From Rhodospirillales bacterium (GTDB lineage: Bacteria; Pseudomonadota; Alphaproteobacteria; Kiloniellales; JACOMY01): a stretch of DNA of 64,000 nucleotides. Positions 15,779 to 63,272 of the stretch are shown piece by piece. The position numbers and the translations under genes were made by a program. The DNA is taken from contig OY770023.1 of the NCBI GenBank assembly GCA_963669335.1, positions 3,298,873-3,362,872 of the forward strand, written 5' to 3'. The notes beneath the pieces are model-generated. The model saw nothing but the letters and a program-made list of their open reading frames with translations, did not search any database and was not told the origin of the DNA. Numbering within the stretch: position 1 is the stretch's first letter; every line of letters begins with the position of its first letter.

Positions 15779-15857
15779 TGAGTCAAGCCTTAACGAACCA
15801 GAAAGACCAGACTCTCAGTCTGAGAGCGTTAAACCCTGATCTGGGAGGATATCTCGA

Positions 15858-33448: not shown

Positions 33449-33590
33449 TTTCTCCTCGATCAAGAGCATTTGCTACGCCGGGCCCGCTTCACACAAGCCG
33501 CTCCGTCCCTGCCGAAGGGATTTTTTCCGGCCGGTCCAAGATCCACTTGACACATCGTCACATCTTAGCGTATGCCATTTATTGGCACAC

Positions 33591-33609
33591 TTGTGCTGAT
33601 ATATGGAAC
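33591..33609 (+). promoter_or_regulatory. Copy iii of the conserved TTGTGCTGATATA element, upstream of aapJ
   Basis: TTGTGCTGATATATGGAAC is identical at 18/19 nt with the minus-strand reading of 40139-40157. It ends 21 nt before the aapJ ATG. Confidence 0.55.
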
Positions 33610-33630
33610 AACACGTCTGGGAGAAACACA

Positions 33631-34671
33631 ATGCTCAAGTGGTCCATCATGGCCCCTGCAGCCCTGGCCGCAGCCTGTTTTACCCTCGCCCCGCTGACCG
33701 CATCGGCGGCAAGCCCCACGGTCGAAGCCATCCAAGAACGTGGCACCCTGCTGTGCAGCGGCCACAACGGCAGCTATTTCGGCTTCGTCGAAGTGAACGA
33801 CAAGAACGAGTGGAAGGGCCTCGACATCGATCTCTGTCGTGCGCTCACCACCGCCATCCTGGGCGATCCCACGAAGGCCCAGATCATCCCGCTCAGCTGG
33901 GCACAGCGCTTCCCGGCCCTGCAGTCGGGTGACGTCGATGTCATCATCAAGGCCACCGGCTGGACCATGGGCCGCGACACCGAGCTGGGGCTGCAGTTCA
34001 GCCTGCCCTACTTCTTCGGCGGCACCCAGTTGATGGCGCACGGCGACCTCGGCGTGACCGAGGCCAAAGATCTGGAAGGCGGCACCATCTGCGTCGAAGC
34101 CGGCACCACGATCGAGCGTATCGTCGCCGACTATCTGAAGACCCTGGGTGTCGAGCACACCATGGTCTCCTACGAGAAGGCAGCCGAGCTGCGTTCGGCC
34201 TATCTGGCCAATCGCTGTGATGCCTTCGCCGGCTGGGGCCCCAATCTCGCCGTGCTGCGCGCCACCGAGATCGATAACCCTGATGCCCACATCATCCTCT
34301 CCGACCAGCTGTCCAGCGAGCCGATCGCCGCTGCCATGCGCCAGGGCGATGAGGACTTCGTGGACGTGATCAACTGGATGCTGGCAGCCCTGCTGCTGGC
34401 CGAAGAGCATGGCGTGACCCAGGCCAATGTCGAGGAGATGGCTGCCAATCCGACGAACCCGACGGTTGGCCGTCTGCTGGGTGCCACCCCCGGTATCGGC
34501 GAGCGTCTTGGACTGCGCGATACCTGGGCTCGCGAGATGATCGGTGCGGTCGGCAACTTCGCCGAAATCTATGATCGCAACCTTGGCAAAGACTCTCCCT
34601 ACAAGCTCGACAGGGGCATGAACAACCTGTGGAGCCATGGCGGCGTCCTCTACGCCCCCATCCTTGACTGA
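33631..34671 (+). CDS. aapJ: General L-amino-acid ABC transporter substrate-binding protein (AapJ/BztA family)
   Basis: ATG 33631 and signal peptide MLKWSIMAPAALAAACFTLAPLTASA. Family blocks: FGFVEVNDKNEWKGLDIDLCRAL...ILGDPTK, GTICVEAGTTIE, EPIAAAMRQGDEDF, HGVTQANVEEM. Confidence 0.85.
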   Translation: MLKWSIMAPAALAAACFTLAPLTASAASPTVEAIQERGTLLCSGHNGSYFGFVEVNDKNEWKGLDIDLCRALTTAILGDPTKAQIIPLSWAQRFPALQSGDVDVIIKATGWTMGRDTELGLQFSLPYFFGGTQLMAHGDLGVTEAKDLEGGTICVEAGTTIERIVADYLKTLGVEHTMVSYEKAAELRSAYLANRCDAFAGWGPNLAVLRATEIDNPDAHIILSDQLSSEPIAAAMRQGDEDFVDVINWMLAALLLAEEHGVTQANVEEMAANPTNPTVGRLLGATPGIGERLGLRDTWAREMIGAVGNFAEIYDRNLGKDSPYKLDRGMNNLWSHGGVLYAPILD

Positions 34672-34741
34672 TCGCCCAACCGAGCCAGGCCGCAAAATGC
34701 GGCCTGGCTTTTATCAATAACAAACGACCAGGGAGGTAGCG

Positions 34742-35881
34742 ATGAGCGCGCCAAGCGGCGTTCTGTCAAAAAAGAATAAGGAATATGTGATCCAAGCGGT
34801 CCTGATGACCGTTACGATCCTGATTATCTGGGTGGCAATTTCAAGCGCGCGCACGAACCTCGATGCTCTCGGCATCTCGAGCGGCTTTGGCTTCCTGGAT
34901 CGCGGGACCGGCTGGTCCTATTCCTTCTCGCTGATCGAGCGGTCGATCGACGATACCTATCGCCGGACGCTCTTCATCGGCTTCACGAACACACTCTTTC
35001 TGGGGCTCTTCTCGATCGTCTTGGCCACGCTCCTGGGTTTCCTGATCGGGACCATGAGAGACGCCAAGAACATTGCAACCAAGAGCGCGGCCACGACCTT
35101 CGTCCAGATCTTCCGGAACATCCCGCTGATCCTGCAGCTGGTCTTCTGGTATGCGATGCTGATCCATATGCCGGGTCCCAGACAGTCTTTCGACTTCTTC
35201 AGTCTGGCCTTCCTCTCGAACCGCGGTGCGGTCATTCCCGCGCTCAACATCTCGGCCGGAGTGGTTATCGGCATCATCGCGATCTCTGCCGTCTTCGGCT
35301 TCATCCTGCACTACCTCTGGAAGGCCAAGGTCTCGAAGAAAGTGCTGGTCTGGCTGGTCGGCACCGTCATCGTGACCGTCTTCTTGACCTTCGTCTTCTC
35401 GCCCAAGGGCGAGGCCATGATCTCCGTGCCGGAGCTGAAGGGGCTGCGCTTCGTCGGCGGACTCAATATCTCCGTCGAACTCGTCGCCATGGTCATCGGC
35501 ATCGTGCTCTATGGGGCTGCCTACATCGCCGAGGTCGTGCGTGGAGGCCTGCAGGAAGTGCCGAAGGGCCTCGTTGAGGCCGGGCAGGCTTTGGGGTTGA
35601 ACTCCAGCGCCATCTGGTTCCGCATCAAGATGCCGATGGCGCTGCGCACGATCATTCCGCCGCTGGGCAATCAGTGGATCTTCCTGATGAAGGCCACGAC
35701 CATCGGTGTCGCGATCGGCTTCAGCGATCTCTTCATGATCGTCTCGACCTCTATCACCCAGTCGGGCCAGACCTTGGAGCTGATCGGCATCCTCATGGCG
35801 GCCTTCCTTCTGGTCAACTTCGGGATTGCACAGTTCGTCAACCTGTTGAACGCCCGCATGCAGCTGAAGGGACACAGTTAA
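34742..35881 (+). CDS. aapQ: Amino-acid ABC transporter permease (AapQ/BztB family)
   Basis: 379-aa polytopic protein with the EAA-type loop (AYIAEVVRGGLQEVPKGLVEAGQALGL). Confidence 0.85.
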   Translation: MSAPSGVLSKKNKEYVIQAVLMTVTILIIWVAISSARTNLDALGISSGFGFLDRGTGWSYSFSLIERSIDDTYRRTLFIGFTNTLFLGLFSIVLATLLGFLIGTMRDAKNIATKSAATTFVQIFRNIPLILQLVFWYAMLIHMPGPRQSFDFFSLAFLSNRGAVIPALNISAGVVIGIIAISAVFGFILHYLWKAKVSKKVLVWLVGTVIVTVFLTFVFSPKGEAMISVPELKGLRFVGGLNISVELVAMVIGIVLYGAAYIAEVVRGGLQEVPKGLVEAGQALGLNSSAIWFRIKMPMALRTIIPPLGNQWIFLMKATTIGVAIGFSDLFMIVSTSITQSGQTLELIGILMAAFLLVNFGIAQFVNLLNARMQLKGHS

Positions 35882-35882
35882 G

Positions 35883-36965
35883 ATGACCAGTGTTGCAACC
35901 AACGCTCCTTCGCGCCTTGACCAGGCCCTGCGCTATCTGAAAAAGCGGGCCTTCGGATCGCCAAAAGACGGAGTCATTTCGGTCCTCTTCTTCGGACTTC
36001 TGGCCTACTGCATCTATGTAGCGCTGGATTGGGCCATCTTCTCGGCGGTCTGGTCGGCGGACAACGTAGCGGCCTGTGAAACGGCCAAGGGGGCCTGCTG
36101 GTCGGTCGTCGATGCGCGCCATCGGCTGATTCTCTTCGGCCTCTACCCCTATGACCTGCATTGGCGCTCGACGCTCGCCTGCATCTCGATCGTGGCTACG
36201 GTGATCCTCTCCTGCATCCCCTTCTTCTGGTCGGTCAAACGCCTGGTTAGCCTCTGGGTCGTGGGTTTCGCCGTCTACTACCTGTTGATGGAGGGTAGCC
36301 TGATCGGCCTGCAGCAGGTCACGACCGACCAGTGGGGTGGCTTGGCCCTCACCCTCTTCCTCTTCTCCTCGGTCGTGCTGGTCGGCATGCCGATGGGGCT
36401 GGGCCTCGCCTTGGCCCGCCGCTCCAAGTTGCCGGTGCTGCGTTACGGTGCGACGATCCTGATCGACTTCATCCGTTCGCTGCCGCTGCTGACGACGCTC
36501 TTCACGGCGGCTGTGGTGGTGCCGATCCTGCTGCCGGACTGGCTGCAGGGGGATAAGATCTGGCGCGTCATCATCGCCTTCGGTCTCTTCTTCGGCTGCT
36601 ATCAGGCAGAGATCTTCCGCGGCGGCTTCCAAGCCATCCACAAGGGGCAGTTCGAGGCCGGCAAAGCCTTGGGTCTCGGTTACTGGCAGATCCTTGGCAC
36701 CATCATCCTGCCGCAGGTCTTCCGCCATGCGCTGCCTGGCACCATCAACATGGTGGTTGTGACCTTCAAGGAGACGGCCATCGTCATCATCATCGGCTTC
36801 TTCGATGTCTTGGCCTCAGCCAATGCCGCCTTCGGCACAGGTGAATGGGCGCCCTACTTCCTGGAAGTCTATGCCTTCGTCGGCCTGATCTACTGGCTAT
36901 TTATCTTCTCCCTGGGCCAGTACGGCGAATACCTCAAGAGCCGCATGGCAGTGGCCAAGCACTGA
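35883..36965 (+). CDS. aapM: Amino-acid ABC transporter permease (AapM/BztC family)
   Basis: 360-aa polytopic protein with EAA loop (CYQAEIFRGGFQAIHKGQFEAGKALGL). Starts 1 nt after the aapQ stop. Confidence 0.85.
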   Translation: MTSVATNAPSRLDQALRYLKKRAFGSPKDGVISVLFFGLLAYCIYVALDWAIFSAVWSADNVAACETAKGACWSVVDARHRLILFGLYPYDLHWRSTLACISIVATVILSCIPFFWSVKRLVSLWVVGFAVYYLLMEGSLIGLQQVTTDQWGGLALTLFLFSSVVLVGMPMGLGLALARRSKLPVLRYGATILIDFIRSLPLLTTLFTAAVVVPILLPDWLQGDKIWRVIIAFGLFFGCYQAEIFRGGFQAIHKGQFEAGKALGLGYWQILGTIILPQVFRHALPGTINMVVVTFKETAIVIIIGFFDVLASANAAFGTGEWAPYFLEVYAFVGLIYWLFIFSLGQYGEYLKSRMAVAKH

Positions 36966-36995
36966 CCGAAATATCGCCTCTTGAGCGACGAAGAG

Positions 36996-37036
36996 AGAAG
37001 CCCGCAGAGATCCATCTCTGCGGGCTTCTTCTTTAC
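36996..37036 (+). terminator. Strong rho-independent terminator after aapM
   Basis: AGAAGCCCGCAGAGAT and ATCTCTGCGGGCTTCT are perfectly complementary 16-nt arms (apical bases form the loop), followed by TCTTCTTT. Confidence 0.8.
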
Positions 37037-37225
37037 TGACTGGCACACTCTAGCTGGGGTAGAGGTGGGATAGTGAAGCGGGCGAGCGGTGAACACCCGA
37101 ACCCGTCCTTTTGTTGAGATGCGTCCCGGCGTCCTTTCTCATCAAACCAAGACATGGCTCTGACAACAGACTTATTGTCGTTCTCCGGCTTGACCAGAGT
37201 GCCATTAACCACTTGATGTGCATGC

Positions 37226-37256
37226 AGAAAAATGCCCTCCGATTAAGTCGGAGGGC
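37226..37256 (-). terminator. Rho-independent terminator after the metC-VOC-PDO operon
   Basis: The minus strand reads GCCCTCCGA-CTTAA-TCGGAGGGC followed by ATTTTTCTG, 63 nt downstream of the PDO-like stop. Confidence 0.8.
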
Positions 37257-37318
37257 GACAGCCAACTGTACTCAGATGCGGGAATGACCGGAGGCCGCTA
37301 TCTGCGGCGAAAGCCGCC

Positions 37319-38203
37319 CTAAATCTGGTTGATCGGTACCTTGAGGGCCGGGGTCCCCTCTTCGTCTCTTGGCATCTCGCCGGCGCGCAGATTGACCTGG
37401 ATCGAGGGGATCAGAAGTGCCGGTACGGCAAGCTGCGCATCGCGGGCTTCACGCATGGCGACAAACTGATCGCGGCTGCGGCCGCCACCGACGTGGATGT
37501 TGTTCTGCCGCTCGTCGCCGACCGTGGTCTCCCACGCGATCTCGCGGCCGTTGGGACCATAGTCGTGGCACATGAAGAGCCGGAGCTCGTCCGGCAGGCT
37601 CAAGATGCGCATGATGGAGTCATAGAGAATTCCGGCATCGCCGCCGGGAAAGTCGGCCCGCGCCGAGCCGCCGTCGGGCATGAAGAGCGTATCGCCGACA
37701 AAGCCGGCATCACCCATGATGTGAACCATGCAGGCTGGCGTGTGCCCCGGCGTGTGCAGGGCTACGCACTCCATCCCACCGACCTTGTAGCGATCGCCAT
37801 CCTTGAAGAGGCGATCGAACTGAGAGCCGTCACGCTGGAACTCTGTGCCCTCGTTGAAGATCTTGCCGAAGACCTCCTGCACCTCGCAGATCCCTTCGCC
37901 GATGCCGATGGATCCCCCCAGCTTCTCTTGAATGTAGGGCGCTGCCGAGAGGTGATCGGCGTGGGCGTGGGTCTCGATGATCCACTCCAAGTTCAGGCCC
38001 TGCAGGTCGATGTAGGCGATGATGCGATCGGCGCTCTCGAAAGAGATACGGCCGGCGGCGTAGTTGAGATCCAGGACCGAATCGATCACGGCGCAGGCCT
38101 TGCTGTTCGGGTCTTTGACCACGTAGCTGATGGTGTTGGTGCGCTTATCGAAGAAGGCGACCACCTCTGGCTTGACCGACAGGTCCACTGAGATCTCGTT
38201 CAT
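37319..38203 (-). CDS. MBL-fold hydrolase, type II persulfide dioxygenase-like
   Basis: THAHADHLSAAPYIQEKLGG, ALHTPGHTPACM, VGDTLFMPDGGSARADFPGG, LFMCHDY, FVAMREARD. The length (294 aa) and motif order match bacterial type II PDOs as I recall them. Confidence 0.7.
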   Translation of the reverse strand: MNEISVDLSVKPEVVAFFDKRTNTISYVVKDPNSKACAVIDSVLDLNYAAGRISFESADRIIAYIDLQGLNLEWIIETHAHADHLSAAPYIQEKLGGSIGIGEGICEVQEVFGKIFNEGTEFQRDGSQFDRLFKDGDRYKVGGMECVALHTPGHTPACMVHIMGDAGFVGDTLFMPDGGSARADFPGGDAGILYDSIMRILSLPDELRLFMCHDYGPNGREIAWETTVGDERQNNIHVGGGRSRDQFVAMREARDAQLAVPALLIPSIQVNLRAGEMPRDEEGTPALKVPINQI

Positions 38204-38242
38204 GCAACGTCTCCGCTATCTGCTTTCTGTAAATCTAGGTCC

Positions 38243-38875
38243 TCAGTCCAGTACGACCAAGCCATTGGGTGTGCGAAGCGAGAAGGAGAGGCTCCGCGGT
38301 CCCGGTCGTACCTCCGCCAAGTGATCGATGCCGAGTTGTTCCAGAACCCCGCTCAAGGTGGCCGGATCGGGATGGGTCAGGATGATCTGCTCCAACGCCA
38401 GACCCAGATCCTGCATGCCCTGGCTCGGGTGCGGCCCCGGCGACCATTCAATGAAGGCAGGGATCAAGCCACCTTCCGGCAAAGAGCCGTCCTTCGGCAC
38501 GGTCAGGCGCCAAGACCGTTCACCGCGGCTCAGATGCAAGACCTCTCCAAGGTCCAGTGGGCTCTTGGCAACGACGGCATCCAGATCATCGGTCGCCACG
38601 ACCCAGCAGAGGGCGCGGGGACGCTCGGCAATCCGCGACTTCGTTTCCGGATCATCCAGTGTGAACCAACGGGTTCGGCTGGGTGCCGGAGCGTCTGGAT
38701 CCAATGAGATGACCTCAAAAAAGCGCTCTTGGCCGGCCTGCACCACGCGGTTGTGCGTGCTCATCTGGTCGTGCTTGCCGCCCAGGGGTACCGTGATGCC
38801 CAGCGCATGCTCCATGGCGAGCCGTCCCTGTTCCAGGTCAGCAGCACCAACAGTAAAATGATCGATCTTGTTCAC
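38243..38875 (-). CDS. VOC-superfamily (glyoxalase-like domain) protein
   Basis: 210-aa ORF (GTG start) with IDHFTVGAADLEQG...GGKH... at the N-terminus, typical of glyoxalase-like domain proteins. Lies between metC and the PDO-like gene. Confidence 0.6.
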   Translation of the reverse strand: MNKIDHFTVGAADLEQGRLAMEHALGITVPLGGKHDQMSTHNRVVQAGQERFFEVISLDPDAPAPSRTRWFTLDDPETKSRIAERPRALCWVVATDDLDAVVAKSPLDLGEVLHLSRGERSWRLTVPKDGSLPEGGLIPAFIEWSPGPHPSQGMQDLGLALEQIILTHPDPATLSGVLEQLGIDHLAEVRPGPRSLSFSLRTPNGLVVLD

Positions 38876-38894
38876 CGTCTTGTGGATCCCTCAG

Positions 38895-40067
38895 TCAGTC
38901 GAGAAGCGGCAGTGCCTGTGTGAGATCTCCGATCAGGGTCTCGAGGCTTTCGTTGCCGATGGAAAAGCGCACCACCTGTCCGGGCTCGTCCCAGCCCGCG
39001 GCCGAGCGATGCGGCTTGACCGGCAGCACCAGGCTCTCGAAGCCGCCCCAGCTGGCGCCGATCCCGAAATAGGAAAGCGCATCGACGAAGGCCCGCACCT
39101 GGTCATCCGAGCAGGGCTTGAAAATGACGCTGAAGAGGCCGGCTGCACCTGAGAAATCACGTTTCCAGAATTCATGGCCCGGGCAGTCCGGAAAGGCCGG
39201 GTGCAGCAATTTCAGAACCTGCGGCTGCTGCTTCAGCCACTTAGCCACAGCCATCGCGGCGGCCTCGGCATGCTTCAATCGTATCTCGAGCGTCCTGAGG
39301 CCCCGCAGCGATAGAAAGACATCCAGGGATCCCGGCCGCTCGCCGAAGGTGAGGACGGATTTGCGCATCTCTGCATGAGTGGCCTCGTTGCAGACGATAA
39401 GCCCCAGCATGGAATCGGAGTGGCCGCTCAGGTACTTGGAGCCGGAGTGAACCACGACATCGACGCCCAAAGAGAGCGGCTGGCAGAAAAGCGGCGTGGC
39501 CCAGGTACCATCCAGGATCGAGATCGCGCCGTGGGCCCGCGCCACATCGGCAATCGCGGGAATGTCTGGCACCTCGAAGGTGCCGGATCCAGGCGCCTCA
39601 TACATCACGGCGGCAGTGTTGGGGCGCATCAGCTTGGCGATCTCAGCCCCGATCATCGGGTCGAAGTACTCCACCTCGATCCCGAAGCGCGGCAGCATAC
39701 GGTCGCAGAAGCCCCGGGTGTTGCCATAAACGTGATCGGCGACCAACAGATGGTCGCCGGCCTTAGCGGCGCCCATCAGAGCCATACTAACCGCCATGAC
39801 CCCCGATGAGAGCGCGATGGCACCCGCTGCACCCTCTAGCGCAGCAAAGCTCTCCTCCAGCGCAATACTGCCCTGCGTGCCATAACGTCCGTAATAGAGA
39901 GTGCCCGGCTCGTAGCGGGCATCGCGAGCTGCCTCGAAGGCGCCCAGACTCTCGAAAAGCATGGTAGAACCCTGGTCAATCGGCAGATTCACCAGGCGTC
40001 CGTCCTGCGCCGGCCCGCGACCGAGGTGGGCCAAACGGTCGGCAAAGGAAGAGGCTCTCTTCGTCAT
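38895..40067 (-). CDS. metC: Cystathionine beta-lyase / PLP-dependent Cys-Met-metabolism C-S lyase
   Basis: PLP-Lys motif HSGSKYLSGHSD and family blocks (YGRYGTQGSIALEESFAALEG, GGFESLV). ATG 40067 is preceded by AAAGAGGAAC. The upstream 19 codons of the track ORF are dropped. Confidence 0.8.
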   Translation of the reverse strand: MTKRASSFADRLAHLGRGPAQDGRLVNLPIDQGSTMLFESLGAFEAARDARYEPGTLYYGRYGTQGSIALEESFAALEGAAGAIALSSGVMAVSMALMGAAKAGDHLLVADHVYGNTRGFCDRMLPRFGIEVEYFDPMIGAEIAKLMRPNTAAVMYEAPGSGTFEVPDIPAIADVARAHGAISILDGTWATPLFCQPLSLGVDVVVHSGSKYLSGHSDSMLGLIVCNEATHAEMRKSVLTFGERPGSLDVFLSLRGLRTLEIRLKHAEAAAMAVAKWLKQQPQVLKLLHPAFPDCPGHEFWKRDFSGAAGLFSVIFKPCSDDQVRAFVDALSYFGIGASWGGFESLVLPVKPHRSAAGWDEPGQVVRFSIGNESLETLIGDLTQALPLLD

Positions 40068-40115
40068 CACATGTTCCTCTTTGGGAGCATCGCAGGTGAT
40101 GACATCGGAGACCGA

Positions 40116-40157
40116 GTGTGTCAATATACAAACCAGACGTTCTATATATCAGCACAA
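40116..40157 (-). promoter_or_regulatory. Copy ii of the conserved 42-bp imperfect inverted-repeat element (metC / bisC-like divergent promoter region)
   Basis: The minus strand reads TTGTGCTGATATATAGAACGTCTGGTTTGTATATTGACACAC. This is identical at 31/42 positions with 43862-43903, and the outer blocks are identical. Confidence 0.6.
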
Positions 40158-40169
40158 CAGAAAGCCTGC

Positions 40170-42491
40170 ATGCCAAGTTCTCCGCCACAAGGCCGACGCC
40201 TGACGGCGTCCCACTGGGGCCCAGGTCTGGTGACCGTCTCAGAGGGTCGATTGGTCTCCGTCGATCCGCATCCTGATGATCCGGATCCCTCGCGTATCAA
40301 CGAGAATATCGCGCCCAGCCTCTACGGCTCGGCCAGGGTTATGCGCCCTGCGGTGCGGGAGAGCTATCTGAAGCATGGCCCCCTCGCCCGCCAGGGAGAG
40401 CGCGGCCGCGAAGGCTTCATCGAGGTGAGCTGGGATCGCGCTTTGGATCTAGTCCAGGCCGAGCTTGAGCGCGTTCACCGCGAGCATGGCAACGAGGCCA
40501 TCTTCGGCGGATCCTATGGCTGGTCCAGCGCCGGGCGCCTGCACCATGCGCAGAGCCAGCTGAAGCGCTTCCTCAATGCCGCCGGCGGCTTCGTACGCTC
40601 GGAGGGGAACTACAGCTACAATGCCGCCCTGGTGTTGATGCCGCACATCGTCAAGAACTTCCGAGACCATGTGAAGGAGACCACACGGCTTACCACCGTC
40701 GCCCAAGAGGGCGAGCTTATGGTCATGTTCGGCGGCATTCCGCTGCGCAATGCCCAAGTGACGGACGGCGGCGTCGGCCGGCACCAGGTCAAGGGCGATC
40801 TCATCGCCTGTGCCGAGGCCGGCGTGCGTTTCGTGAACCTGAGCCCGCTGCGTGGCGACGCCGACCAAAAACTGAAAGCCGAGTGGCTGCCGCCGCGTCC
40901 GGGCAGCGACACCGCCGTCATGATGGGCCTGGCCCATACCCTCTTGAGCGAGGGGCTGCACGATCAGGCCTTCCTCGACCGCTACACCGTCGGCTTCGAC
41001 AGGGTTGCGGCCTACCTCCTGGGCAAGACGGACGGCGAAGCCAAGACGGTCGAGTGGGCCGGACGCCTCTCCGGGCTCGACCCCGAGCAGCTGCGCCGGC
41101 TCGCTCGTGAGATGGCGGCCAAGCGCACGATGATCTGCACCGCATTCGGCCTGCAGCGTGCGGACTTCGGCGAACAGGTGCTCTGGATGACCGTCACCCT
41201 AGCGGCCATGCTGGGTCAGATCGGCCTGCCGGGTGGCGGCTACACTATCGGCTATGGCGGCAACGCGGTCATCGGCTCAGCCGACCGGCCGCGACGCTGG
41301 GCGAACTTTTCGCAGGGGCGCAATCCGCTCGATCGTTTCATCCCCGTCGCCATGTCGGCGGAGATGTTGCTGAACCCGGGCGGACACTACGATTACAATG
41401 GTCAGTCCCTCACCTTCCCTGACATCCGGCTGGTCTGGTGGGCCGGCGGCAATCCCTTCCATCATCACCAGGATCTGAACCGTCTGCGCCAGGCCTTTCA
41501 GAAGCCGGAAACCATCATCGTCAACGAAATCAACTGGACGGCAACCGCGCGCCACGCCGACATCGTGCTACCGGTGGCCGCCCCGCAGGAACGAGACGAC
41601 TTCGGCGGCGGCAAGCAGGACTGCTCACTGGTGCCCATGCCCAAGGTGGCGGAACCCGCCGGCGAGGCGCGTTGCGAATTCGATATTTATCAAGAGCTGG
41701 AAGCTCGGATGGACCTGGGCACTGCCTTCAGCGGCGGCCGCACCAAAGAGCAGTGGCTGGAGGCATTGTGGCAGCAGATGCAGGAGGGCTTGGCCGACCT
41801 CGGCCAAGGGCTGCCCGCGCTTCAGGAGTTTCTCGCCGGCGACATGATCCACTTCGAGGATCCCACACCCGACGCGGTCTTCCTTTCCGACTTTCGTGCC
41901 GATCCAGAGACCCACCGGCTGCCGACCCCCAGCGGCAAACTGGAACTGGCCTCGGACGCCATCGCGGGCTTCGGCTATCTAGACTGCCCGGGCCAGGCGA
42001 CCTGGATACCACCGCGCGACTGGGTCGACGGCAGAGCCGAACACTTTCCGCTTCATCTCTTGACCGGGCAGCCGGCAACACGGCTGCACAGTCAATATGA
42101 CAACGGCCCCTTTAGCCTCAGCCGCAAGATCAAGGGCCGAGAGCCGATAATCATCAACAAGGATGATGCAGCAGAACGAGAGATCCAGGACGGCGATGTC
42201 GTCGAGATCTTCAACGATCGCGGCCGTTGCCTGGCCGGTGCCGTGGTGAGCGAGGGCATCCGTAAAGGCGTGCTCTTCCTTTGGACCGGCGCCTGGTATG
42301 ATCCCGACTTCGAAGCTCCCGATCACCGCGATCGGCACGGCAACCCCAATGTGCTGACCCATGACCTGCGCACCTCGCGTTTGGCACAGGGGCCGGCAGC
42401 GCAATCCTCTTACGTCGACATCCGCCCCTTCCGGGAGAAGCTTCCCGAGGTGCGCGCATTCGAAAGCCCCATCAAGGGGCGAGAAAGATGA
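40170..42491 (+). CDS. Cytoplasmic molybdopterin S-/N-oxide reductase, BisC-like (paralog B)
   Basis: Colinear similarity to paralog A (e.g. HGNEAIFGGSYGWSSAGRLHHAQSQLKRFLN vs HGNEAIFAGSYGWASAGRFHHAPSQIHRFLN). Start at ATG 40170 (MPSSPPQGRRLTASHWGPGL). No signal-peptide hydrophobic core. Confidence 0.8.
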   Translation: MPSSPPQGRRLTASHWGPGLVTVSEGRLVSVDPHPDDPDPSRINENIAPSLYGSARVMRPAVRESYLKHGPLARQGERGREGFIEVSWDRALDLVQAELERVHREHGNEAIFGGSYGWSSAGRLHHAQSQLKRFLNAAGGFVRSEGNYSYNAALVLMPHIVKNFRDHVKETTRLTTVAQEGELMVMFGGIPLRNAQVTDGGVGRHQVKGDLIACAEAGVRFVNLSPLRGDADQKLKAEWLPPRPGSDTAVMMGLAHTLLSEGLHDQAFLDRYTVGFDRVAAYLLGKTDGEAKTVEWAGRLSGLDPEQLRRLAREMAAKRTMICTAFGLQRADFGEQVLWMTVTLAAMLGQIGLPGGGYTIGYGGNAVIGSADRPRRWANFSQGRNPLDRFIPVAMSAEMLLNPGGHYDYNGQSLTFPDIRLVWWAGGNPFHHHQDLNRLRQAFQKPETIIVNEINWTATARHADIVLPVAAPQERDDFGGGKQDCSLVPMPKVAEPAGEARCEFDIYQELEARMDLGTAFSGGRTKEQWLEALWQQMQEGLADLGQGLPALQEFLAGDMIHFEDPTPDAVFLSDFRADPETHRLPTPSGKLELASDAIAGFGYLDCPGQATWIPPRDWVDGRAEHFPLHLLTGQPATRLHSQYDNGPFSLSRKIKGREPIIINKDDAAEREIQDGDVVEIFNDRGRCLAGAVVSEGIRKGVLFLWTGAWYDPDFEAPDHRDRHGNPNVLTHDLRTSRLAQGPAAQSSYVDIRPFREKLPEVRAFESPIKGRER

Positions 42492-42561
42492 GCGGTCATT
42501 GCCGGTTTGCCCGGCATTTGTTAGGACCGCCCGAACGAACAGGGCTGACGGACCAAGTGTT

Positions 42562-43347
42562 TTGAATGTAAGCAACAAGAATCTTCGGGCAGAACGACCC
42601 GCAAGAATTGACTCGACCTTGGCGAAAGGTCTTCAGGTCTTAGAGGCCTTGGCCAGATCGAAGGACGGCAAGGGCGTGACTGAACTTGCCAGAGAGTTGG
42701 AGCTGACGAAGTCCAACACCTTCCGTCTGCTGCAGTCTCTGACGGCATTGGGCTATGCGCGCTCTTTGGAGTCGAAGCTCTATGCGCCGACCATGAAGAT
42801 CTGGCAGGTCGGCCTGGCAGTGATCGACAACCTGGATCTGCCGGAGATCGCGGGCCCGCACCTCAGAAAGCTGTCGCAGGAAACGAGCGAGGCCATCTAC
42901 CTCGCGATCCGCGACGGCCTTTCGGTGGTCTACATCGACCGCATCGAGAGCACGCAGCCGATCCGATCCTGGAACCCCATCGGCGGCAGTGCCCCCTTGC
43001 ACTGCGTCGGTACCGGAAAAGCGCTGCTGGCGGCCGACTACGAGCGCCTGCGCAATCAGATCCAGGATCGCCTCATCAAGTTCACCGATCGCACGCTGAC
43101 CACGATCCAAGCCCTGGACGCGGACATGGCGGCAACGCGGGCACGCGGCTATGCCATCGACACAGGCGAGTATCGCGAGAGGATTTTCAGCTTCGGCGCC
43201 GTGGTCAGCCTGCCCAACGGCGAGCCGATTGCCGCCGTCGGCGTCTCCGTGCCTGATGTCAATCTGATTGATGACCGGCAAGAGCAGATCTGCCGGCAGC
43301 TCATGGTGGCTGCTGCCGGCGTCACCGAAGCACTAAAGGACCGCTAG
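42562..43347 (+). CDS. IclR-family transcriptional regulator
   Basis: HTH region LAKGLQVLEALARSKDGKGVTELARELELTKSNTFRLLQSLTALGYA plus an IclR effector domain (HCVGTGKALLA). There is no in-frame ATG near the domain start. TTG 42562 is proposed, so the start is uncertain. Confidence 0.75.
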   Translation: MNVSNKNLRAERPARIDSTLAKGLQVLEALARSKDGKGVTELARELELTKSNTFRLLQSLTALGYARSLESKLYAPTMKIWQVGLAVIDNLDLPEIAGPHLRKLSQETSEAIYLAIRDGLSVVYIDRIESTQPIRSWNPIGGSAPLHCVGTGKALLAADYERLRNQIQDRLIKFTDRTLTTIQALDADMAATRARGYAIDTGEYRERIFSFGAVVSLPNGEPIAAVGVSVPDVNLIDDRQEQICRQLMVAAAGVTEALKDR

Positions 43348-43444
43348 CACGAGTGTGCGGTGAGTGAGGCTCACCGCCTCGCACCGCGCCGGTGCCGCCG
43401 AGCAACGTCGGTCACTGTCAATGACCGCCGGCACCAATCCGTCC

Positions 43445-43849
43445 TTACTTCTTCTTCTCTTCGGGGAACTCGACCGGCCCGCCGGCCTTTGCCCAGGAGG
43501 AGAATCCCTCTCTTAGGTGCGCGGCCTCAAAGCCCATGTCTTGAAGCGTGGCCACGGTCAATGCCGAACGCCAGCCCGATGCGCAGTGAAAGATGAAGCG
43601 CTTGTCCTGGGCGAAAATGTCCTTGAAGTAAGGGCTCTTCGGGTCCACCCAGAACTCGGCCATGCCGCGCGGGCAGTGAAAGCTGCCGGGAATGAATCCA
43701 AGCTTCTGGCGCTCGCGCACATCGCGTATGTCGACAACCACGACCGAGGGGTCCTTCGCCAGCTCCATCAGATCGGCGGTCTCCACCTCTTCAATGCGCG
43801 CGCGCGCATTGGCCACCATCTCCGCGACAGAGGTCTTCAACTCCTGCAT
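43445..43849 (-). CDS. Single-domain rhodanese (sulfurtransferase)
   Basis: Active-site loop HCASGWRS. ATG 43849 is preceded by AAAGGAG. The upstream 18 codons of the track ORF are dropped. Confidence 0.8.
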   Translation of the reverse strand: MQELKTSVAEMVANARARIEEVETADLMELAKDPSVVVVDIRDVRERQKLGFIPGSFHCPRGMAEFWVDPKSPYFKDIFAQDKRFIFHCASGWRSALTVATLQDMGFEAAHLREGFSSWAKAGGPVEFPEEKKK

Positions 43850-43861
43850 CCCATTGCTCCT

Positions 43862-43903
43862 TTGTGCTGATATACGGCACGTGCATTTCACATATTGACA
43901 CAA
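43862..43903 (+). promoter_or_regulatory. Copy i of the conserved 42-bp imperfect inverted-repeat element (rhodanese / FAD-oxidoreductase divergent promoter region)
   Basis: TTGTGCTGATATACGGCACGTGCATTTCACATATTGACACAA. The arms TTGTGCTGATAT and ATATTGACACAA are 9/12 reverse-complementary. Confidence 0.6.
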
Positions 43904-43965
43904 CCACCCTCGCAGGGCATCTTGGTCTTGTCAACGTAGTTTCCAGGAATTTGGCAAGGTCGGAA

Positions 43966-45249
43966 ATGGTCATGAGGGCTGAAGGCAGGGAGCAAATCTC
44001 GCTCTGGGATGGCAGTGCTGAGGAAGCGGATCTCGTATCCCCCTTTCAGTCAGACCTCTCAACCGACCTGGCGATCATCGGTGGCGGGTTCACCGGTCTC
44101 TCGACTGCTTTGCACGCCGCAGAGCGCGGCATCGCCTGCCACGTTTTGGAGGCACAGCATATTGGTTACGGTGGCTCGGGGCGCAATGTCGGTCTGGTGA
44201 ACGCGGGCCTCTGGCTGCCGCCGCAAGACGTGCGCGCCAAGCTGGGCGAAGAGCAAGGCGCGGCGTTGGTGCAGACCCTGGGCGATGCGCCCAGCTATGT
44301 CATGTCGCTGATCGAGCGCTATCAGATCCGCTGCGAAGCGACCCGCAGCGGCACCATTCACGCCGCCCATTCGCCTAAAGGCTTCCACGACCTGGAGCGG
44401 CGGACCGAGGAGTGGCACCGGCTGGGGGCTCCGGTCGATCTGCTGAGCAAGGAGCAAACCGCCGAGAAGATCGGGAGTCAGGCCTTCTACGGTGGTCTGC
44501 TTGATCATCGCGCCGGCACGATCAATCCGATGGGCTATGTCCGTGGCCTCGCCCGCGCTGCCCTGGCCGCCGGCGCCGAGATCTCGACTGGCGTCCGTGC
44601 AACTGGGCTGGAGCGAAAGGCCGGAAAGTGGCTGGTCAAGACCGACCGCGGGCTGGTGACAGCCAACTCGGTGGTCCTGGGCACCAATGCTTACTCTGAC
44701 GATCTCTGGCCCGGTTTGCGCAAGACCTTCACCACGATTCACTACTTCCAGCTTGCGACCAAGCCGATGGGCGACCGCGTGGCGCACATCCTGCATGAAG
44801 GCCAAGGCCTCTGGGATACCGGGCCCATTATGTTCTCGCTGCGTCGCGATGCTTTCGGCCGCTTGATCATCGGATCGATGGGCCGCGTGGTCGGCGACCT
44901 CAGTGGTCTTTCCAAGCGTTGGGCCACCAAGAACCTGGCCCGCCTCTTCCCCGAGCTGGGGCCGGTCGAGTTCGAGACGGCCTGGCATGGCCAAATCGCC
45001 ATGACCCCCGATCACCTGCCGCGCATCCATCGCCTGGCCGACGGCCTCTACACCCCCATTGGCTATAACGGTCGTGGCATCACGCCCGGGACCATCTTCG
45101 GCCGGGCCATGGCCGAGCTGCTTTCCGGCAAGAAGGAAGCGGAGCTGCCGCTGCCGATCACAGAGTTGAAGGAGGTAACCTCCGCCCCCTTCATGTCCCG
45201 CCTCTATCAGATGGCCTTCACGGCCAATCAGATCTGGAAAAGCCTCTAG
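43966..45249 (+). CDS. FAD-dependent oxidoreductase (DAO family; PuuB/OrdL-like)
   Basis: Dinucleotide fold DLAIIGGGFTGLSTALHAAERG, then GGSGRNVG. About 427 aa from ATG 43966 (ATG 43972 is an alternative). Confidence 0.78.
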   Translation: MVMRAEGREQISLWDGSAEEADLVSPFQSDLSTDLAIIGGGFTGLSTALHAAERGIACHVLEAQHIGYGGSGRNVGLVNAGLWLPPQDVRAKLGEEQGAALVQTLGDAPSYVMSLIERYQIRCEATRSGTIHAAHSPKGFHDLERRTEEWHRLGAPVDLLSKEQTAEKIGSQAFYGGLLDHRAGTINPMGYVRGLARAALAAGAEISTGVRATGLERKAGKWLVKTDRGLVTANSVVLGTNAYSDDLWPGLRKTFTTIHYFQLATKPMGDRVAHILHEGQGLWDTGPIMFSLRRDAFGRLIIGSMGRVVGDLSGLSKRWATKNLARLFPELGPVEFETAWHGQIAMTPDHLPRIHRLADGLYTPIGYNGRGITPGTIFGRAMAELLSGKKEAELPLPITELKEVTSAPFMSRLYQMAFTANQIWKSL

Positions 45250-45263
45250 AAGAAGGACCCCCA

Positions 45264-47351
45264 ATGACCGAGTCTCAAATCCGCGTTGGTGTCGATATCG
45301 GTGGTACCTTTACCGATGTCGCGCTTGAGCACGCAGGCGGCCTGGCCTCCTGCAAGGTGCTGACCGACTACGCGGAGCCCGAGCGCGCGATCGTCAAGGC
45401 GATCGCCCAAGCAAGCGAGCAGGCCGGCGTCTCGCTCTCCGATATCGCTCAGGTGATCCACGGCACGACTCTGGTCACCAATGCGCTGATCGAGCGGCGC
45501 GGTGCGAAGCTGGCCTTCATCACCACCGAGGGCTTCCGCGACGTCATCGAGATGCGAACCGAGAACCGCTTCGAGCAGTACGATCTGGACCTACAACTGC
45601 CCAAGCCTCTGGTGCCCCGCAAGGACCGCTTCACCCTGTCGGAGCGCATCTCGGCCGATGGCGAAGTCCTGCTGGCCCTGGACCAGGCCGAGGTCGAGGC
45701 TCTGGTGGAGCGTGTCGTCAACGCTGGCTATGAGGCAGTCGCGATTGGCTTCCTCCACGCCTATGCCAACCCGGCACATGAGTTCCAGGTCGAAGCCGCT
45801 CTGCGTGCCGCAGCACCCGATCTCTCGATCTCCGTCTCCTCGGTTATCTCGCCGCAGATGCGAGAATTCGCCCGCTTCAACACGGTAATCGCCAATGCCT
45901 ATGTGCAGCCGCAGGTCGCCAGCTACCTGAACCGCCTGGTCGCCCGCCTGAGCGACAGCGGCGTCTCAGCTCCGGTCTTCATGATGCACTCCGGCGGCGG
46001 GCTGATCTCCGTCGAGACCGCCAGCCGTGAGCCGGTGCGCCTGCTCGAGTCGGGTCCGGCCGGTGGTGCTATCTTCGCCGCCGACTTCGCCATGGCGCAC
46101 GGCCTGAACAAGGTGCTCTCCTTCGACATGGGCGGCACCACGGCCAAGATCTGCCTGATCGAAGAGGGTACGCCCAAGACCGCCAACACCTTCGAGGTCG
46201 CCCGCACCTACCGCTTCAAGAAGGGCTCGGGCATGCCGGTCTCCACACCGGTGGTGGAGATGGTCGAAATCGGCGCCGGCGGCGGCTCCATCGCGCATAT
46301 CGACTCCATGGAGCAGATCCGCGTCGGCCCGCAGAGTGCTGCTTCCGAGCCCGGCCCTGCCTGCTATCAGCGCGGCGGCGAAGAGCCGACGGTCACCGAC
46401 TCCAACCTGATGCTGGGACGCCTGGATCCGGACAACTTCGCCGGCGGCGCCATTCCGCTGTCACCCGATCTCGCCAGCCGGGCACTGGCCTCTCGCCTCT
46501 GCAACGGCACCGGACTGGACCCGCAGTCGGCCGCCTTCGGTGTGACCGAGATGGTCGATGAGAATATGGCCAACGCAGCGCGCGTGCACACGGTGGAGAA
46601 CGGCCGCGATATCGAGGCCTTCACCATGATCGCCTTCGGTGGCGGTGCGCCGCTGCACGCCTGTCGGCTCTGCGAGAAGCTGGGCATCGAGCGGGCCATC
46701 GTGCCGCCGGGCGCCGGCGTCGGCTCTGCCATCGGCTTCCTGAAGGCGCCCTTCAGCTACGAGGCGACCCGCGGTCTTTTCCAACGCCTCTCCGCCTTTG
46801 ATCCGGAGAAGGTCAACGAGGCCCTGGCGGCCCTGGAGGAAGAGGCGCGCAGCTTCGTGACCGCAGGCGCCGGCGAGGCCGAGACCACTGCCAAGCTGAC
46901 CATCTTCATGCGCTACGCCGGTCAGGGCTCTGAGATCCCGGTGGTCCTGCCCTATCGCCCTTTCACCAACGAGGACATCGCGATCCTCAAGGAGGCCTTC
47001 GAGGACTCCTATCGCACGCTCTTCGGCCGGGTGATCGAAGATCTTGCGATCGAGATCACCAACTGGTCGCTGGTCGTGGCCTCTGTCCTGCCGGATGTAC
47101 CCAAGGCCGGCCGCCACTTCGAGGGCTTGCCGCTGGAGACCAGCAAGATCCGTCGTTTCTTCGACGCCGCTCTGCGCGAGACGGTCGAGGCCGTCGAGGT
47201 CGAGCGCGAGGCGCTGGAGCCGGGTCTTGCCGTCGACGGCCCCGTCGTCATCGTCGAACGCAACACCTCCACCATCGTCACCTCGGCCTACACGGTCATC
47301 GGTCAGGGCGATGGTTCCCTCCTCCTCCAACGCAAGGGAGCCAGCCAATGA
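45264..47351 (+). CDS. Hydantoinase/oxoprolinase family protein, A (HyuA-type) subunit
   Basis: VGVDIGGTFTDV N-terminal ATPase motif, DMGGTTAKI, and 695 aa in length. Confidence 0.85.
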   Translation: MTESQIRVGVDIGGTFTDVALEHAGGLASCKVLTDYAEPERAIVKAIAQASEQAGVSLSDIAQVIHGTTLVTNALIERRGAKLAFITTEGFRDVIEMRTENRFEQYDLDLQLPKPLVPRKDRFTLSERISADGEVLLALDQAEVEALVERVVNAGYEAVAIGFLHAYANPAHEFQVEAALRAAAPDLSISVSSVISPQMREFARFNTVIANAYVQPQVASYLNRLVARLSDSGVSAPVFMMHSGGGLISVETASREPVRLLESGPAGGAIFAADFAMAHGLNKVLSFDMGGTTAKICLIEEGTPKTANTFEVARTYRFKKGSGMPVSTPVVEMVEIGAGGGSIAHIDSMEQIRVGPQSAASEPGPACYQRGGEEPTVTDSNLMLGRLDPDNFAGGAIPLSPDLASRALASRLCNGTGLDPQSAAFGVTEMVDENMANAARVHTVENGRDIEAFTMIAFGGGAPLHACRLCEKLGIERAIVPPGAGVGSAIGFLKAPFSYEATRGLFQRLSAFDPEKVNEALAALEEEARSFVTAGAGEAETTAKLTIFMRYAGQGSEIPVVLPYRPFTNEDIAILKEAFEDSYRTLFGRVIEDLAIEITNWSLVVASVLPDVPKAGRHFEGLPLETSKIRRFFDAALRETVEAVEVEREALEPGLAVDGPVVIVERNTSTIVTSAYTVIGQGDGSLLLQRKGASQ

Positions 47352-49012
47352 GCGACCGCAGCATCGACTACCAGATCATGTGGAACCGCTTGATCGCGGT
47401 GGTGGAAGAGCAGGCCATGACCCTGGTGCGCACGGCCTTCTCCACCTCCGTGCGCGAAGCGGGCGATCTCTCCGCCGGCCTCTTCGATCGGGGCGGCCGC
47501 ATGATGGCGCAGGCCGTCACCGGAACACCCGGCCACGTCAATGCCATGGCAGAGAGCGTCGGCCACTTCGTCGAGGCCATCGGCCAGGATCAGATCTTCG
47601 AGGGCGATGTCTTCCTGACCAACGATCCCTGGTTGGGGACGGGGCACCTGCACGACATCACCGTGGTCACCCCCAGCTTTCGCAATGGTCAGCACATCGG
47701 CTTTCTGGCCTGCACCGCGCATGTGGTGGATATCGGCGGCCGCGGCTTCGGCCCCGACGCCAACGAGGTCTATGAAGAAGGCCTGCTGATCCCGATCATG
47801 AAGTTCGCCGAGCGCGGCACGGTGGACCGGACCTTAATCCGCTTCCTGCGCGCCAACACGCGCGAGCCTGACCAGGTGGTCGGCGACATCTACTCTCTGG
47901 CCGCCTGCAACGAGATCGGCGATCGCCGCCTGCAGGACATGCTGGCAGAGTTTCAGATGGGCGATCTGGAGGGGCTCTCCGACTTCATCTACCAGACCAG
48001 CCGCCGTGCCACCTTGAAGGCCATCCAAGCCCTGCCGGACGGTGCCTTCGAGAACGACATGCGGGTCGACGGCTACGACACGCCGGTCGAGATGAAGGTA
48101 CGGCTCTCGATCAAGGGCGACGCTTTGCTGGCTGACTTTGCCGGGACCTCCGGGCCCAGCGCTTTCGGCGTCAACGTCCCGCTGGTCTACACTCGCGCCT
48201 ATGCTTGCTATGGCTTGAAGTGTGCCATCGCCCCGCAGGTGCCGAACAACACCGGCTCTCTCGAGCCCTTCGAGGTCACCGCACCCGACGGCTGCATCCT
48301 GGCGGCTCGCCGGCCGGCACCGGTCTCGGTGCGCCACGTGCTTGGTCATCTGGTGCCGGACGTGGTGCTGGGTGCGCTCCACAAATGTTTGCCGGACAAG
48401 GTGCCGGCAGAGGGCTCGTCAGCGCTTTGGAACATTCAGATCGGCGCGCGTCCCAAGGATCCCTCCTCCGGCCTGCCGAACCGCGAGATCTTGATGTTCA
48501 ACTCCGGCGGCACCGGTGCCAGGCCCAGCTCTGATGGGCTGAGCGCCACTGCCTTCCCCTCCGGCGTCTCCACCATGAGTGTGGAGGCCAGCGAGCATGT
48601 CGGTCCCATCGTGATCTGGCGCAAAGACCTGCGCGAAGGCTCTGGTGGCGCTGGTGCCCATCGTGGCGGGCTCGGCCAGACCATCGAGATCGAGCCACGC
48701 GCGGGCTATGAGCTCTTCTTCAACGCCATGTTCGACCGCATTGACAATCCGGCACGCGGCCGTGAGGGCGGGGGCCCGGGCGGTGCCGGCTCGGTCGCGC
48801 TGGCCGATGGCACGCGCCTCAAGGGCAAGGGCCGGCAAAAGGTTCCGGCCGGGTCGCGTCTGGTGTTGCAACTGCCCGGCGGTGGCGGCTATGGCGATCC
48901 CGGCCAGCGCCCCCGCGAGCAAGTGCGCGCCGATCTGGAAGCCGGCTACATCACCCAATCACAAGCCACGGGCGACTATGCCCTTGATCAAGAAAGTGGA
49001 GAGACCGAATGA
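47348..49012 (+). CDS. Hydantoinase B/oxoprolinase family protein (HyuB-type subunit)
   Basis: IMWNRLIAVVEEQAMTLVRTAFSTSVREAGDLSAGLFD is the typical HyuB start. ATGA overlap with hyuA. Confidence 0.85.
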   Translation: MSDRSIDYQIMWNRLIAVVEEQAMTLVRTAFSTSVREAGDLSAGLFDRGGRMMAQAVTGTPGHVNAMAESVGHFVEAIGQDQIFEGDVFLTNDPWLGTGHLHDITVVTPSFRNGQHIGFLACTAHVVDIGGRGFGPDANEVYEEGLLIPIMKFAERGTVDRTLIRFLRANTREPDQVVGDIYSLAACNEIGDRRLQDMLAEFQMGDLEGLSDFIYQTSRRATLKAIQALPDGAFENDMRVDGYDTPVEMKVRLSIKGDALLADFAGTSGPSAFGVNVPLVYTRAYACYGLKCAIAPQVPNNTGSLEPFEVTAPDGCILAARRPAPVSVRHVLGHLVPDVVLGALHKCLPDKVPAEGSSALWNIQIGARPKDPSSGLPNREILMFNSGGTGARPSSDGLSATAFPSGVSTMSVEASEHVGPIVIWRKDLREGSGGAGAHRGGLGQTIEIEPRAGYELFFNAMFDRIDNPARGREGGGPGGAGSVALADGTRLKGKGRQKVPAGSRLVLQLPGGGGYGDPGQRPREQVRADLEAGYITQSQATGDYALDQESGETE

Positions 49013-49761: not shown

Positions 49762-49775
49762 GGAGCTCCGGAACC

Positions 49776-51686: not shown

Positions 51687-51725
51687 AATCACAAAGAACA
51701 GAAATCAACACGGAGGGAGAAACCC

Positions 51726-62416: not shown

Positions 62417-62573
62417 CAGACGCACGAACTTGCCGCGCAGGTTCAGGGCGTTAAGCCAGCGGCATCGATAGCAAGAGTTCCTCTGTCAGGAAGCGTATTG
62501 TCACTCAACATCGCCAAAGCCCCTTTATTCATGCTATGGTAATGTCTATATGAATAGAATCAACCTATAGGGG

Positions 62574-63194: not shown

Positions 63195-63272
63195 CGGTGT
63201 TCAAAGCCAGCCTAGCCCCTCGTGCGGGCAGACAACGGCCCGACGCTGGCGAAGTCGCCCATTCTCGGTGCT

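Follow-up and report, generated by a model that had tools for sequence, protein, structure and literature searches.

Escherichia coli IclR (aceBAK) and AllR, and also KdgR, are local repressors of the IclR family, whose sites overlap promoters and which are released by a metabolite of the pathway. The operator of TtgV, a member of the same family from Pseudomonas putida, is about 40 bp long and overlaps the promoters of divergent genes. Here we describe a 40-bp element that occurs three times in a stretch of 64,000 nucleotides (hereafter the window) from a Rhodospirillales bacterium (GenBank assembly GCA_963669335.1, contig OY770023.1, positions 3,298,873 to 3,362,872 of the forward strand). 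The element lies in the promoter regions of a gene cluster whose sole transcription-factor gene, iclR (42562..43347, plus strand), encodes a protein with the Pfam domains HTH_IclR and IclR_C. The three blocks are probably the operators of this regulator, which most likely represses five transcription units, as judged from comparison of sequences across species.

The binding sites of the family have been reconstructed comparatively for 181 orthologous groups (Suvorova and Gelfand, 2021; PMC8222616). Group 1 of these sites has the motif GKTYCRYW3-4RYGRAMC, with a subgroup GTTYCRYW3RYGRAAC. Tandem sites 18–22 nt apart, mainly 19–21, were reported in 94 orthologous groups and read as a tetramer bound to a single side of the helix. 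Site centres are most often at −22 from the start codon, and they mostly lie 20–80 nt before start codons (PMC8222616).

A two-unit element in three promoter regions

The 13-mer TTGTGCTGATATA is found at exactly three sites of the window, at 43862 (plus strand, copy i), 40145 (minus, copy ii) and 33591 (plus, copy iii), and no further site appears when up to two mismatches are allowed. Shuffled windows contain 0.28 matches on average, and none of 100 shuffles reaches three. Re-reading the window confirmed the positions and sequences that an earlier note had given for the three blocks, and reproduced the similarity it reported between copies i and ii (31 of 42 positions) and between copies iii and ii (18 of 19). 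Its description of copy iii as a 19-nt fragment with a second part downstream was mistaken: since two scored units pair at 33571 and 33592, this copy is a complete two-unit element (33571–33610), the second unit of which lies upstream of the 13-mer. The string ACGTCTGG, which the note saw as common to copies ii and iii, stands at different offsets in the two and is not conserved in orthologues, so its sharing is probably coincidental. Nor is the TTGTGCTGATATA arm the best conserved one, as had been thought; across species it is the other arm, ATATTGACAC, that varies least, and the direction in which the conserved arm was said to point has no demonstrated meaning.

The element spans 40 bp and is made of two 19-bp quasi-palindromic units with the consensus TGTGCYGATATAYRGAACA, whose centres are exactly 21 bp, or two helical turns, apart. 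Units were scored with a position weight matrix (PWM) built from the loci of other species only and then refined on the loci, with a total of 21.5 bits and its strongest positions at G2, T3, T9, A10, T11 and A17. The core of the unit is GTKYYR-ATATA-YRRAAC; its dyad axis runs through the middle A (position 10), and its conserved outer triplets TGT and ACA have 13 nt between them. At a threshold of 8 bits, exactly six units were detected in the window, all scoring 21.6–28.6 bits and forming three pairs at exactly 21 bp (33571/33592, 40117/40138 and 43863/43884), whereas dinucleotide shuffles of the window (n = 100) yield on average 0.04 units of at least 15 bits.

The putative operator before aapJ (O-aapJ, 33571..33610) comprises units at 33571–33589 (minus, 21.6 bits) and 33592–33610 (plus, 28.6 bits), the proximal one centred 30 nt before the aapJ start codon (33631). 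Between metC and bisB (O-metC/bisB, 40117..40156), a unit at 40117–40135 (plus, 23.5 bits, starting TGTGTCAATATA) is centred 59 nt before the start codon of metC (40067, minus), and a unit at 40138–40156 (minus, 27.2 bits, starting TGTGCTGATATA) is centred 23 nt before that of bisB (40170). The third candidate (O-rhod/DAO, 43863..43902) has units at 43863–43881 (plus, 23.1 bits) and 43884–43902 (minus, 24.1 bits), with centres 23 nt before the start codon of the rhodanese gene (43849, minus) and 73 nt before that of the DAO gene (43966). In the two divergent regions the TGTG ends of the units point outward, opposite to the arrangement at aapJ, where the units are everted so that their TGTG ends face each other.

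This architecture agrees with the published description of group 1 sites. Positions 2–18 of a PWM of 453 orthologous units read GTKYYRATATAYRRAAC, which has the length and dyad axis of the group 1 motif and matches the subgroup consensus at 14–15 of 17 positions. The spacing of 21 bp, shared by all three elements of the window, falls within the range of tandem sites; the unit centres at −23 (rhodanese and bisB), −30 (aapJ), −59 (metC) and −73 (DAO) fall within the usual distances from start codons; and a regulator gene of the family stands beside its presumed targets.

Conservation was followed across species by way of the regulator. The IclR protein has hundreds of close relatives (55–86% identity), and scanning one genome per species with an alignment of them gave 209 confirmed loci, the best 80 of which were fetched with 10-kb flanks. 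When the proteins of the window were mapped on these 80 loci, the iclR orthologues (55–86% identity) were found within the same cluster, in the order aapJQM-(MBL)-Glo3-metC / bisB-iclR / rhodanese / DAO-hyuA-hyuB-SDR-prpE-like-aapP. The cluster occurs in Rhodospirillales, Kiloniellales and Hoeflea, in many roseobacters (Ruegeria, Leisingera, Marinovum, Dinoroseobacter, Sulfitobacter, Roseovarius) and in some Gammaproteobacteria (Psychromonas, Leucothrix, Granulosicoccaceae); cultured carriers include Paracoccus seriniphilus DSM 14827, Leisingera aquimarina DSM 24565 and Marinovum algicola FF3.

The 13-mer recurs with up to two mismatches at syntenic positions in most loci, and the aligned intergenic regions reveal a footprint of 40 bp; in 39–70 species, which range over Rhodospirillales, Kiloniellales, roseobacters, Hoeflea and some Gammaproteobacteria, nothing else in these regions is conserved except one −10-like hexamer. 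The element is thus conserved in orthologous promoter regions, at the same three places in dozens of species. At least one pair of units is present in 78 of the 80 loci and three pairs in 40, while the two loci without a pair keep strong units. With units of at least 9 bits, 185 pairs are spaced by 21 bp and no more than five by any other distance up to 60 bp. These pairs lie between the rhodanese and DAO genes (55) or iclR and DAO (12), between metC and bisB (42) or Glo3 and bisB (6), and upstream of aapJ (about 40), the remainder being immediately upstream of iclR in rearranged loci; every pair with assigned neighbours, which means all but three of the 185, is in a promoter region beside cluster genes or the iclR orthologue. 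Among 398 units of at least 15 bits in the 1.39 Mb covered, 353 belong to 21-bp pairs, and the rest are mostly single units before iclR.

A search anchored in the motif gave the same picture. Metagenome contigs were scanned with a degenerate 38-nt pattern, which on the 80 loci had matched 85 of the called pairs and nothing else. Of the fifty loci recovered, about 45 had genes of the cluster at the matching site, and among these every contig of sufficient length also carried an IclR orthologue; two matches (L081, L101) look like chance. The element is essentially exclusive to this cluster.

The candidate regulator, predicted promoters and rival explanations

The regulator encoded in the window is a standard two-domain IclR protein, with relatives of known structure in PDB entries 1mkm, 2ia2, 8eju and 2xrn/2xro (TtgV). 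An exact look-up of its sequence found no existing record. Its gene and the element remain together when the gene order changes: in rearranged loci (metC/iclR and aapJ/iclR arrangements; L017, L049) the operators are found directly upstream of iclR. Many roseobacter and Hoeflea genomes have one nearly perfect palindromic unit, cGTTCTGaTATaCaGAACa, 25–55 nt before iclR, which is probably an autoregulatory site. It scores 19–25 bits and lies between the bisB stop and the iclR start, at about 9945–9963 in locus coordinates (L028, L032, L033, L035, L037, L040, L043, L045, L051, L061, L066, L072, L075). No such unit precedes iclR in the window (42492–42561) or in its closest relatives. The window has instead a terminator-like hairpin between bisB and iclR (42500–42516, or 42500–42526 with what follows it; TGCCGGTTTGCCCGGCA followed by TTTGTTAGGAC), and hairpin and tail, TTTG(T/A)TAGGAC, are kept in relatives from Rhodospirillales and Kiloniellales (L001, L002, L005, L018). 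Because this hairpin separates bisB from iclR, iclR may have its own promoter in these genomes. Position, specificity, the tracking of iclR, and a sequence and spacing typical of the family together uphold the proposal of a shared cis-regulatory element with the adjacent IclR as its candidate regulator; the element appears to be an evolutionarily conserved DNA-binding site, most likely for that protein.

Predicted promoters suggest how binding might act. Outside the 40 bp, −10-like hexamers are the sole conserved blocks, and they keep a fixed distance: TTGACA-N17-(tg)CAAccT before DAO in 70 loci; TTGACA-N17-CATCnT with a preceding TGT before metC, where ATATTGACAC-N13-TGTCATC keeps a fixed spacing in 42 loci; and TTGAC-N17-CATnCT before aapJ in 39 orthologous regions. 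In the divergent regions the unit closest to DAO or metC contains an invariant TTGACA, and the opposite strand of this DNA carries (A/T)TGACA- or TTGCA-N17-CAATAT, candidate promoters of bisB and the rhodanese gene. The putative DAO promoter of the window (P-DAO, plus) has its −35 box TTGACA at 43895–43900 and, after a 17-nt spacer, its −10 box CATCTT at 43918–43923; for the rhodanese promoter (P-rhod, minus) a −10 box CAATAT is proposed at 43897–43892, its −35 box being poor in the window and not identified. The candidate metC promoter (P-metC, minus) has TTGACA at 40124–40119 and CATCAC at 40101–40096, and that of bisB (P-bisB, plus) ATGACA at 40099–40104 and CAATAT at 40122–40127, so that 40096..40127 would hold overlapping divergent promoters. 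The layout suggests that in such regions each −35 box lies over the −10 box of its partner. The aapJQM promoter (P-aapJ, 33548..33576, plus) is predicted with TTGACA at 33548–33553, a 17-nt spacer and a −10-like hexamer at 33571–33576, which is the outer edge of the first operator unit; the operator would then extend from about −12 to +28. A scan for E. coli-type promoters gave one match against 2.2 expected, that consensus being uninformative for these alphaproteobacterial promoters.

The two-turn spacing of the units means that a dimer of dimers could bind one face of the DNA. We propose that two IclR dimers, as a tetramer, would occupy the 40-bp operator in this way. At the divergent regions the tetramer would block the −35 box of one promoter and, in its partner, the −10 box and start region. 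At aapJ, where the −35 box is upstream of the operator, it would block the −10 box together with about the first 28 transcribed bases. Bound IclR would thus repress aapJQM, metC-Glo3-MBL, bisB(-iclR), rhodanese and DAO-hyuAB-SDR-prpE-aapP, until a small molecule of the pathway releases it from the operators. Repression relieved by an effector is favoured because the −35 boxes match the consensus and the operator overlaps the core promoters.

Several observations weigh against this proposal. The operator at P-DAO and P-metC spans about −67 to −28, a position open to activators too, and some members of the family, namely PcaR, PcaU and PobR, are activators. The assignment of the regulator rests on co-location and motif type, and as the 80 loci were fetched through an IclR orthologue, the co-occurrence of iclR and element in them follows from the way they were chosen, and the metagenome scan alone is free of this bias. 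That scan returned operators with no IclR gene in the stretch fetched (L092, L096, L126, L116 and L122). Autoregulation in the window genome is uncertain as well, because of the hairpin after bisB and the lack of a unit before iclR.

One alternative keeps the same regulator and the same sites but makes IclR an activator, or gives it a dual role like that of PcaR, PcaU or PobR, with an effector needed to switch transcription on. Unit centres near −58 and −37 from the inferred start at P-DAO and P-metC, the poor −35 box on the rhodanese side of the window, and a three-box PcaU site mentioned by Suvorova and Gelfand (PMC8222616) fit this reading. However, all three promoters combine a perfect, invariant TTGACA with a conserved −10-like hexamer 17 nt away, as promoters independent of activators typically do; at aapJ the operator sits on the −10 box and the beginning of the transcript, and units sit 23 nt before the start codons of rhodanese and bisB. 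An activating or dual role is judged rather unlikely.

It is improbable that a different factor encoded elsewhere, for example a global regulator of sulfur or amino-acid metabolism, binds the element while IclR has another target. The five metagenome contigs with an operator and no IclR gene in the stretch fetched speak for such a factor, but the motif is confined to the cluster, unlike the widely spread sites of a global regulator, follows iclR through rearrangements to a place directly upstream of it, and has the sequence and 21-bp tandem layout of the IclR family. Sites of the CRP/FNR type have the geometry TGTGA-N6-TCACA or TTGAT-N4-ATCAA. An assignment to this type was rejected on geometry, the TGT and ACA of the element being 13 nt apart around an ATATA axis.

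There is very little to be said for conservation that reflects strong, overlapping divergent promoter boxes and no regulator site at all. It is true that the most invariant part of the element, TTGACA with CAATAT/ATATTG, coincides with the inferred promoter hexamers; yet the conservation extends over 40 bp in dyad-symmetric units at a strict 21-bp spacing, and the PWM is also fitted by units that have no TTGACA, namely the promoter-distal one, the two at aapJ and the single one before iclR.

A role of the inverted repeat as an RNA hairpin (leader, attenuator or target of a small RNA) is less probable again. In its favour, the element is an imperfect inverted repeat, and 79.6% of cells are pairable across 64 distinct DAO-side sequences, but the covariation is not above that of column shuffles: 184 of 500 attain the covariation score of 0.146, and 184–229 of 500 reach the observed values. 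The arms differ systematically (CTG against TCA) with no compensation, the flanking genes are divergent at two of the three elements, and the units are reversed at aapJ. Rfam has no match at the elements at E values up to 1, and a cis-regulatory RNA was rejected for want of covariation and of an Rfam family. Elsewhere in the window, Rfam matches to snoZ206 and Xoo5 fall below their gathering scores and are taken as spurious; the former, to the eukaryotic snoRNA Z206 (43312–43435, minus; 32.4 bits against a gathering score of 50, E = 0.023), spans the convergent 3′ ends of iclR and the rhodanese gene and is almost certainly spurious.

Finally, the dispersed REP- or MITE-like repeat, which the earlier note had listed among the findings that would refute it, suggested by three near-identical copies within 10 kb, can practically be set aside, because 78 of 80 loci and about 45 of 50 metagenome loci place the element at cluster promoters, with its position kept across bacterial orders and, in the window, no unit of 8 bits or more outside the three pairs.

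Gene content, variant loci and a tentative pathway

Pfam and NCBIfam bear out the gene calls made earlier for the cluster. On the plus strand, aapJ-aapQ-aapM (33631..36965) encode an ABC transporter for polar amino acids (its binding protein and two permeases), and are placed in the regulon. The metC operon (37319..40067, minus) consists of metC (38895–40067), of the cystathionine beta-lyase family (TIGR01324, above cut-off), a Glyoxalase_3/VOC protein (Glo3, 38243–38875) and an MBL-fold protein (37319–38203) that resembles a persulfide dioxygenase and the dioxygenase part of Blh. Then come bisB (40170..42491, plus), a cytoplasmic molybdopterin S/N-oxide reductase of the BisC family, iclR itself, and a single-domain rhodanese (43445..43849, minus), another presumptive member of the regulon. 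A tightly packed operon for six proteins (43966..52475, plus) follows: a DAO-family oxidase (best NCBIfam model L-pipecolate oxidase, 467 bits against a cut-off of 600), HyuA and HyuB, which resemble caprolactamase/oxoprolinase (HyuA best matching caprolactamase alpha, 448 against 1000), an SDR protein, a PrpE-like acyl-CoA synthetase (CoA ligase; 721 against 955) and the ABC ATPase AapP. The best models quoted for this operon are all below the equivalog cut-off.

Between the prpE-like gene and aapP, 25 loci leave a median of 369 nt (18925–19295 in L032, for example), against only 40 nt in the window (51687–51725); no operator unit was found in this gap, which might contain a small gene or some other signal. 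As a further observation on the window, its last part (62001–64000) has a G+C content of 0.535, compared with about 0.60–0.66 elsewhere, and the GC skew rises abruptly to +0.154 at 60–62 kb.

The element would join some 15 genes, organised in five transcription units, in a single regulon. The earlier suggestion that a single regulon embraces all operons between 31 and 52.5 kb thus stands for the five units that share operators, and falls short at the other BisC-family S/N-oxide reductase, paralog A (31139–33469, minus). The gene upstream of aapJ is not conserved across loci, and no close homologue of paralog A was found in the 80 loci, whether beside aapJ or elsewhere. For this reason, and with only 49% identity to bisB, paralog A is not counted as a core member and looks like a lineage-specific addition; its candidacy for the regulon is further unsupported by the distance of about 120 nt between its start codon and the centre of the aapJ operator.

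Variant loci carry the operator into other gene sets. A search of a plasmid collection gave distant matches only, among them a plasmid of Paracoccus seriniphilus DSM 14827 (p449297, NZ_CP067131.1, 272905–285492; L131). Its order is tpa-VOC-metC / iclR / rhodanese / DAO-hyuAB-SDR-propionyl-CoA synthetase, a reduced cluster without bisB and aapJQM to which a gene for hypotaurine-pyruvate aminotransferase (tpa) is attached, and two-unit operators occupy the expected places (14407–14446 and 15786–15825 in the coordinates of L131). Four metagenome contigs, likely from soil or compost, have the same operator with a different gene set (L092, motif at 2034; L096, 3457; L129, 701; L126, 3681): a rhodanese about 46% identical, a cysteine-dioxygenase-type (CDO) cupin, a family III CoA-transferase, an ornithine cyclodeaminase/mu-crystallin protein and a protein of the PEP-mutase/isocitrate-lyase family. 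The fetched stretches of these four hold no IclR gene. Such soil-type variants keep the theme of sulfur and cyclic imines.

What the pathway does can be addressed only speculatively: it may break down a sulfur-containing amino acid taken up from outside, perhaps an S-oxidised and cyclic one. The reading is drawn from the enzymes: a BisC-type S-oxide reductase, a C–S beta-lyase, a flavoenzyme like pipecolate oxidase, a caprolactamase-like ATP-dependent lactamase, a PrpE-like CoA ligase, a rhodanese and a persulfide-dioxygenase-like protein. It is a tentative proposal, which we hold possible but somewhat doubtful, that operator and IclR mark out a catabolic regulon, widespread but not yet described, in marine Alphaproteobacteria and some Gammaproteobacteria, with an imported S-oxidised, possibly cyclic organosulfur amino acid as its likely substrate; an algal sulfoxide amino acid, or an S-substituted cysteine yielding 3-mercaptopropionate, would be candidates. 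If this is true, IclR would be a natural sensor of a pathway metabolite, and a reporter of the 40-bp operator could reveal both the inducer and the pathway.

Conservation of the regulon extends to at least 80 species-level genomes (the best 80 of 209 relatives of the regulator), and it also appears in many marine metagenome contigs. Its mix of enzymes, with an oxidase of the cyclic-imino-acid type and proteins handling sulfane sulfur among them, points to a missing route in the turnover of marine organosulfur compounds and amino acids. A sharp operator with a dedicated regulator offers a direct experimental handle on the inducer and, from there, on the substrate.

Relation to described IclR-family systems

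A literature search found no description of this cluster, gene set or motif, and in those parts of the PMC8222616 supplements that were examined, the site sequences, the gene set and the relevant COG numbers do not occur. Group 1 tandem operators as compiled there (PMC8222616) are nevertheless the closest likeness: the element shares their 17-nt core, the spacing of about two turns, centres about −22 and a regulator beside its targets. It differs from them in its left half-site, usually GTGCY and not GTTCC, in an AT core fixed as ATATA, and in the fusion of one unit to a TTGACA −35 box.

The individual regulators are more distant. TtgV, for which tetramer binding and a protein–DNA structure have been described (PMC8222616; PDB 2XRO), is a sequence relative of the window IclR (E = 6e-11), although only distantly related; it regulates an efflux pump from an operator of different sequence, and the tetramer at our element is a prediction. 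E. coli IclR and AllR, as well as KdgR, differ from the window system in their pathways and box sequences, and the window protein is far below the NCBIfam cut-offs of all three (109.5 bits against 380, 99 against 406 and 127 against 275, respectively). BhcR, the regulator of the beta-hydroxyaspartate cycle, is likewise a local alphaproteobacterial regulator and gives the best named NCBIfam model, but at 156 bits against a cut-off of 350, and with neighbours in the window unrelated to the bhc genes, the window IclR is not its orthologue. Taken together, the element fits an IclR-family tandem operator, a class already known, and the switch proposed for it would be conventional for the family; its value is that it delimits an undescribed, widespread regulon, so that an ordinary type of switch comes with a regulon new to description.

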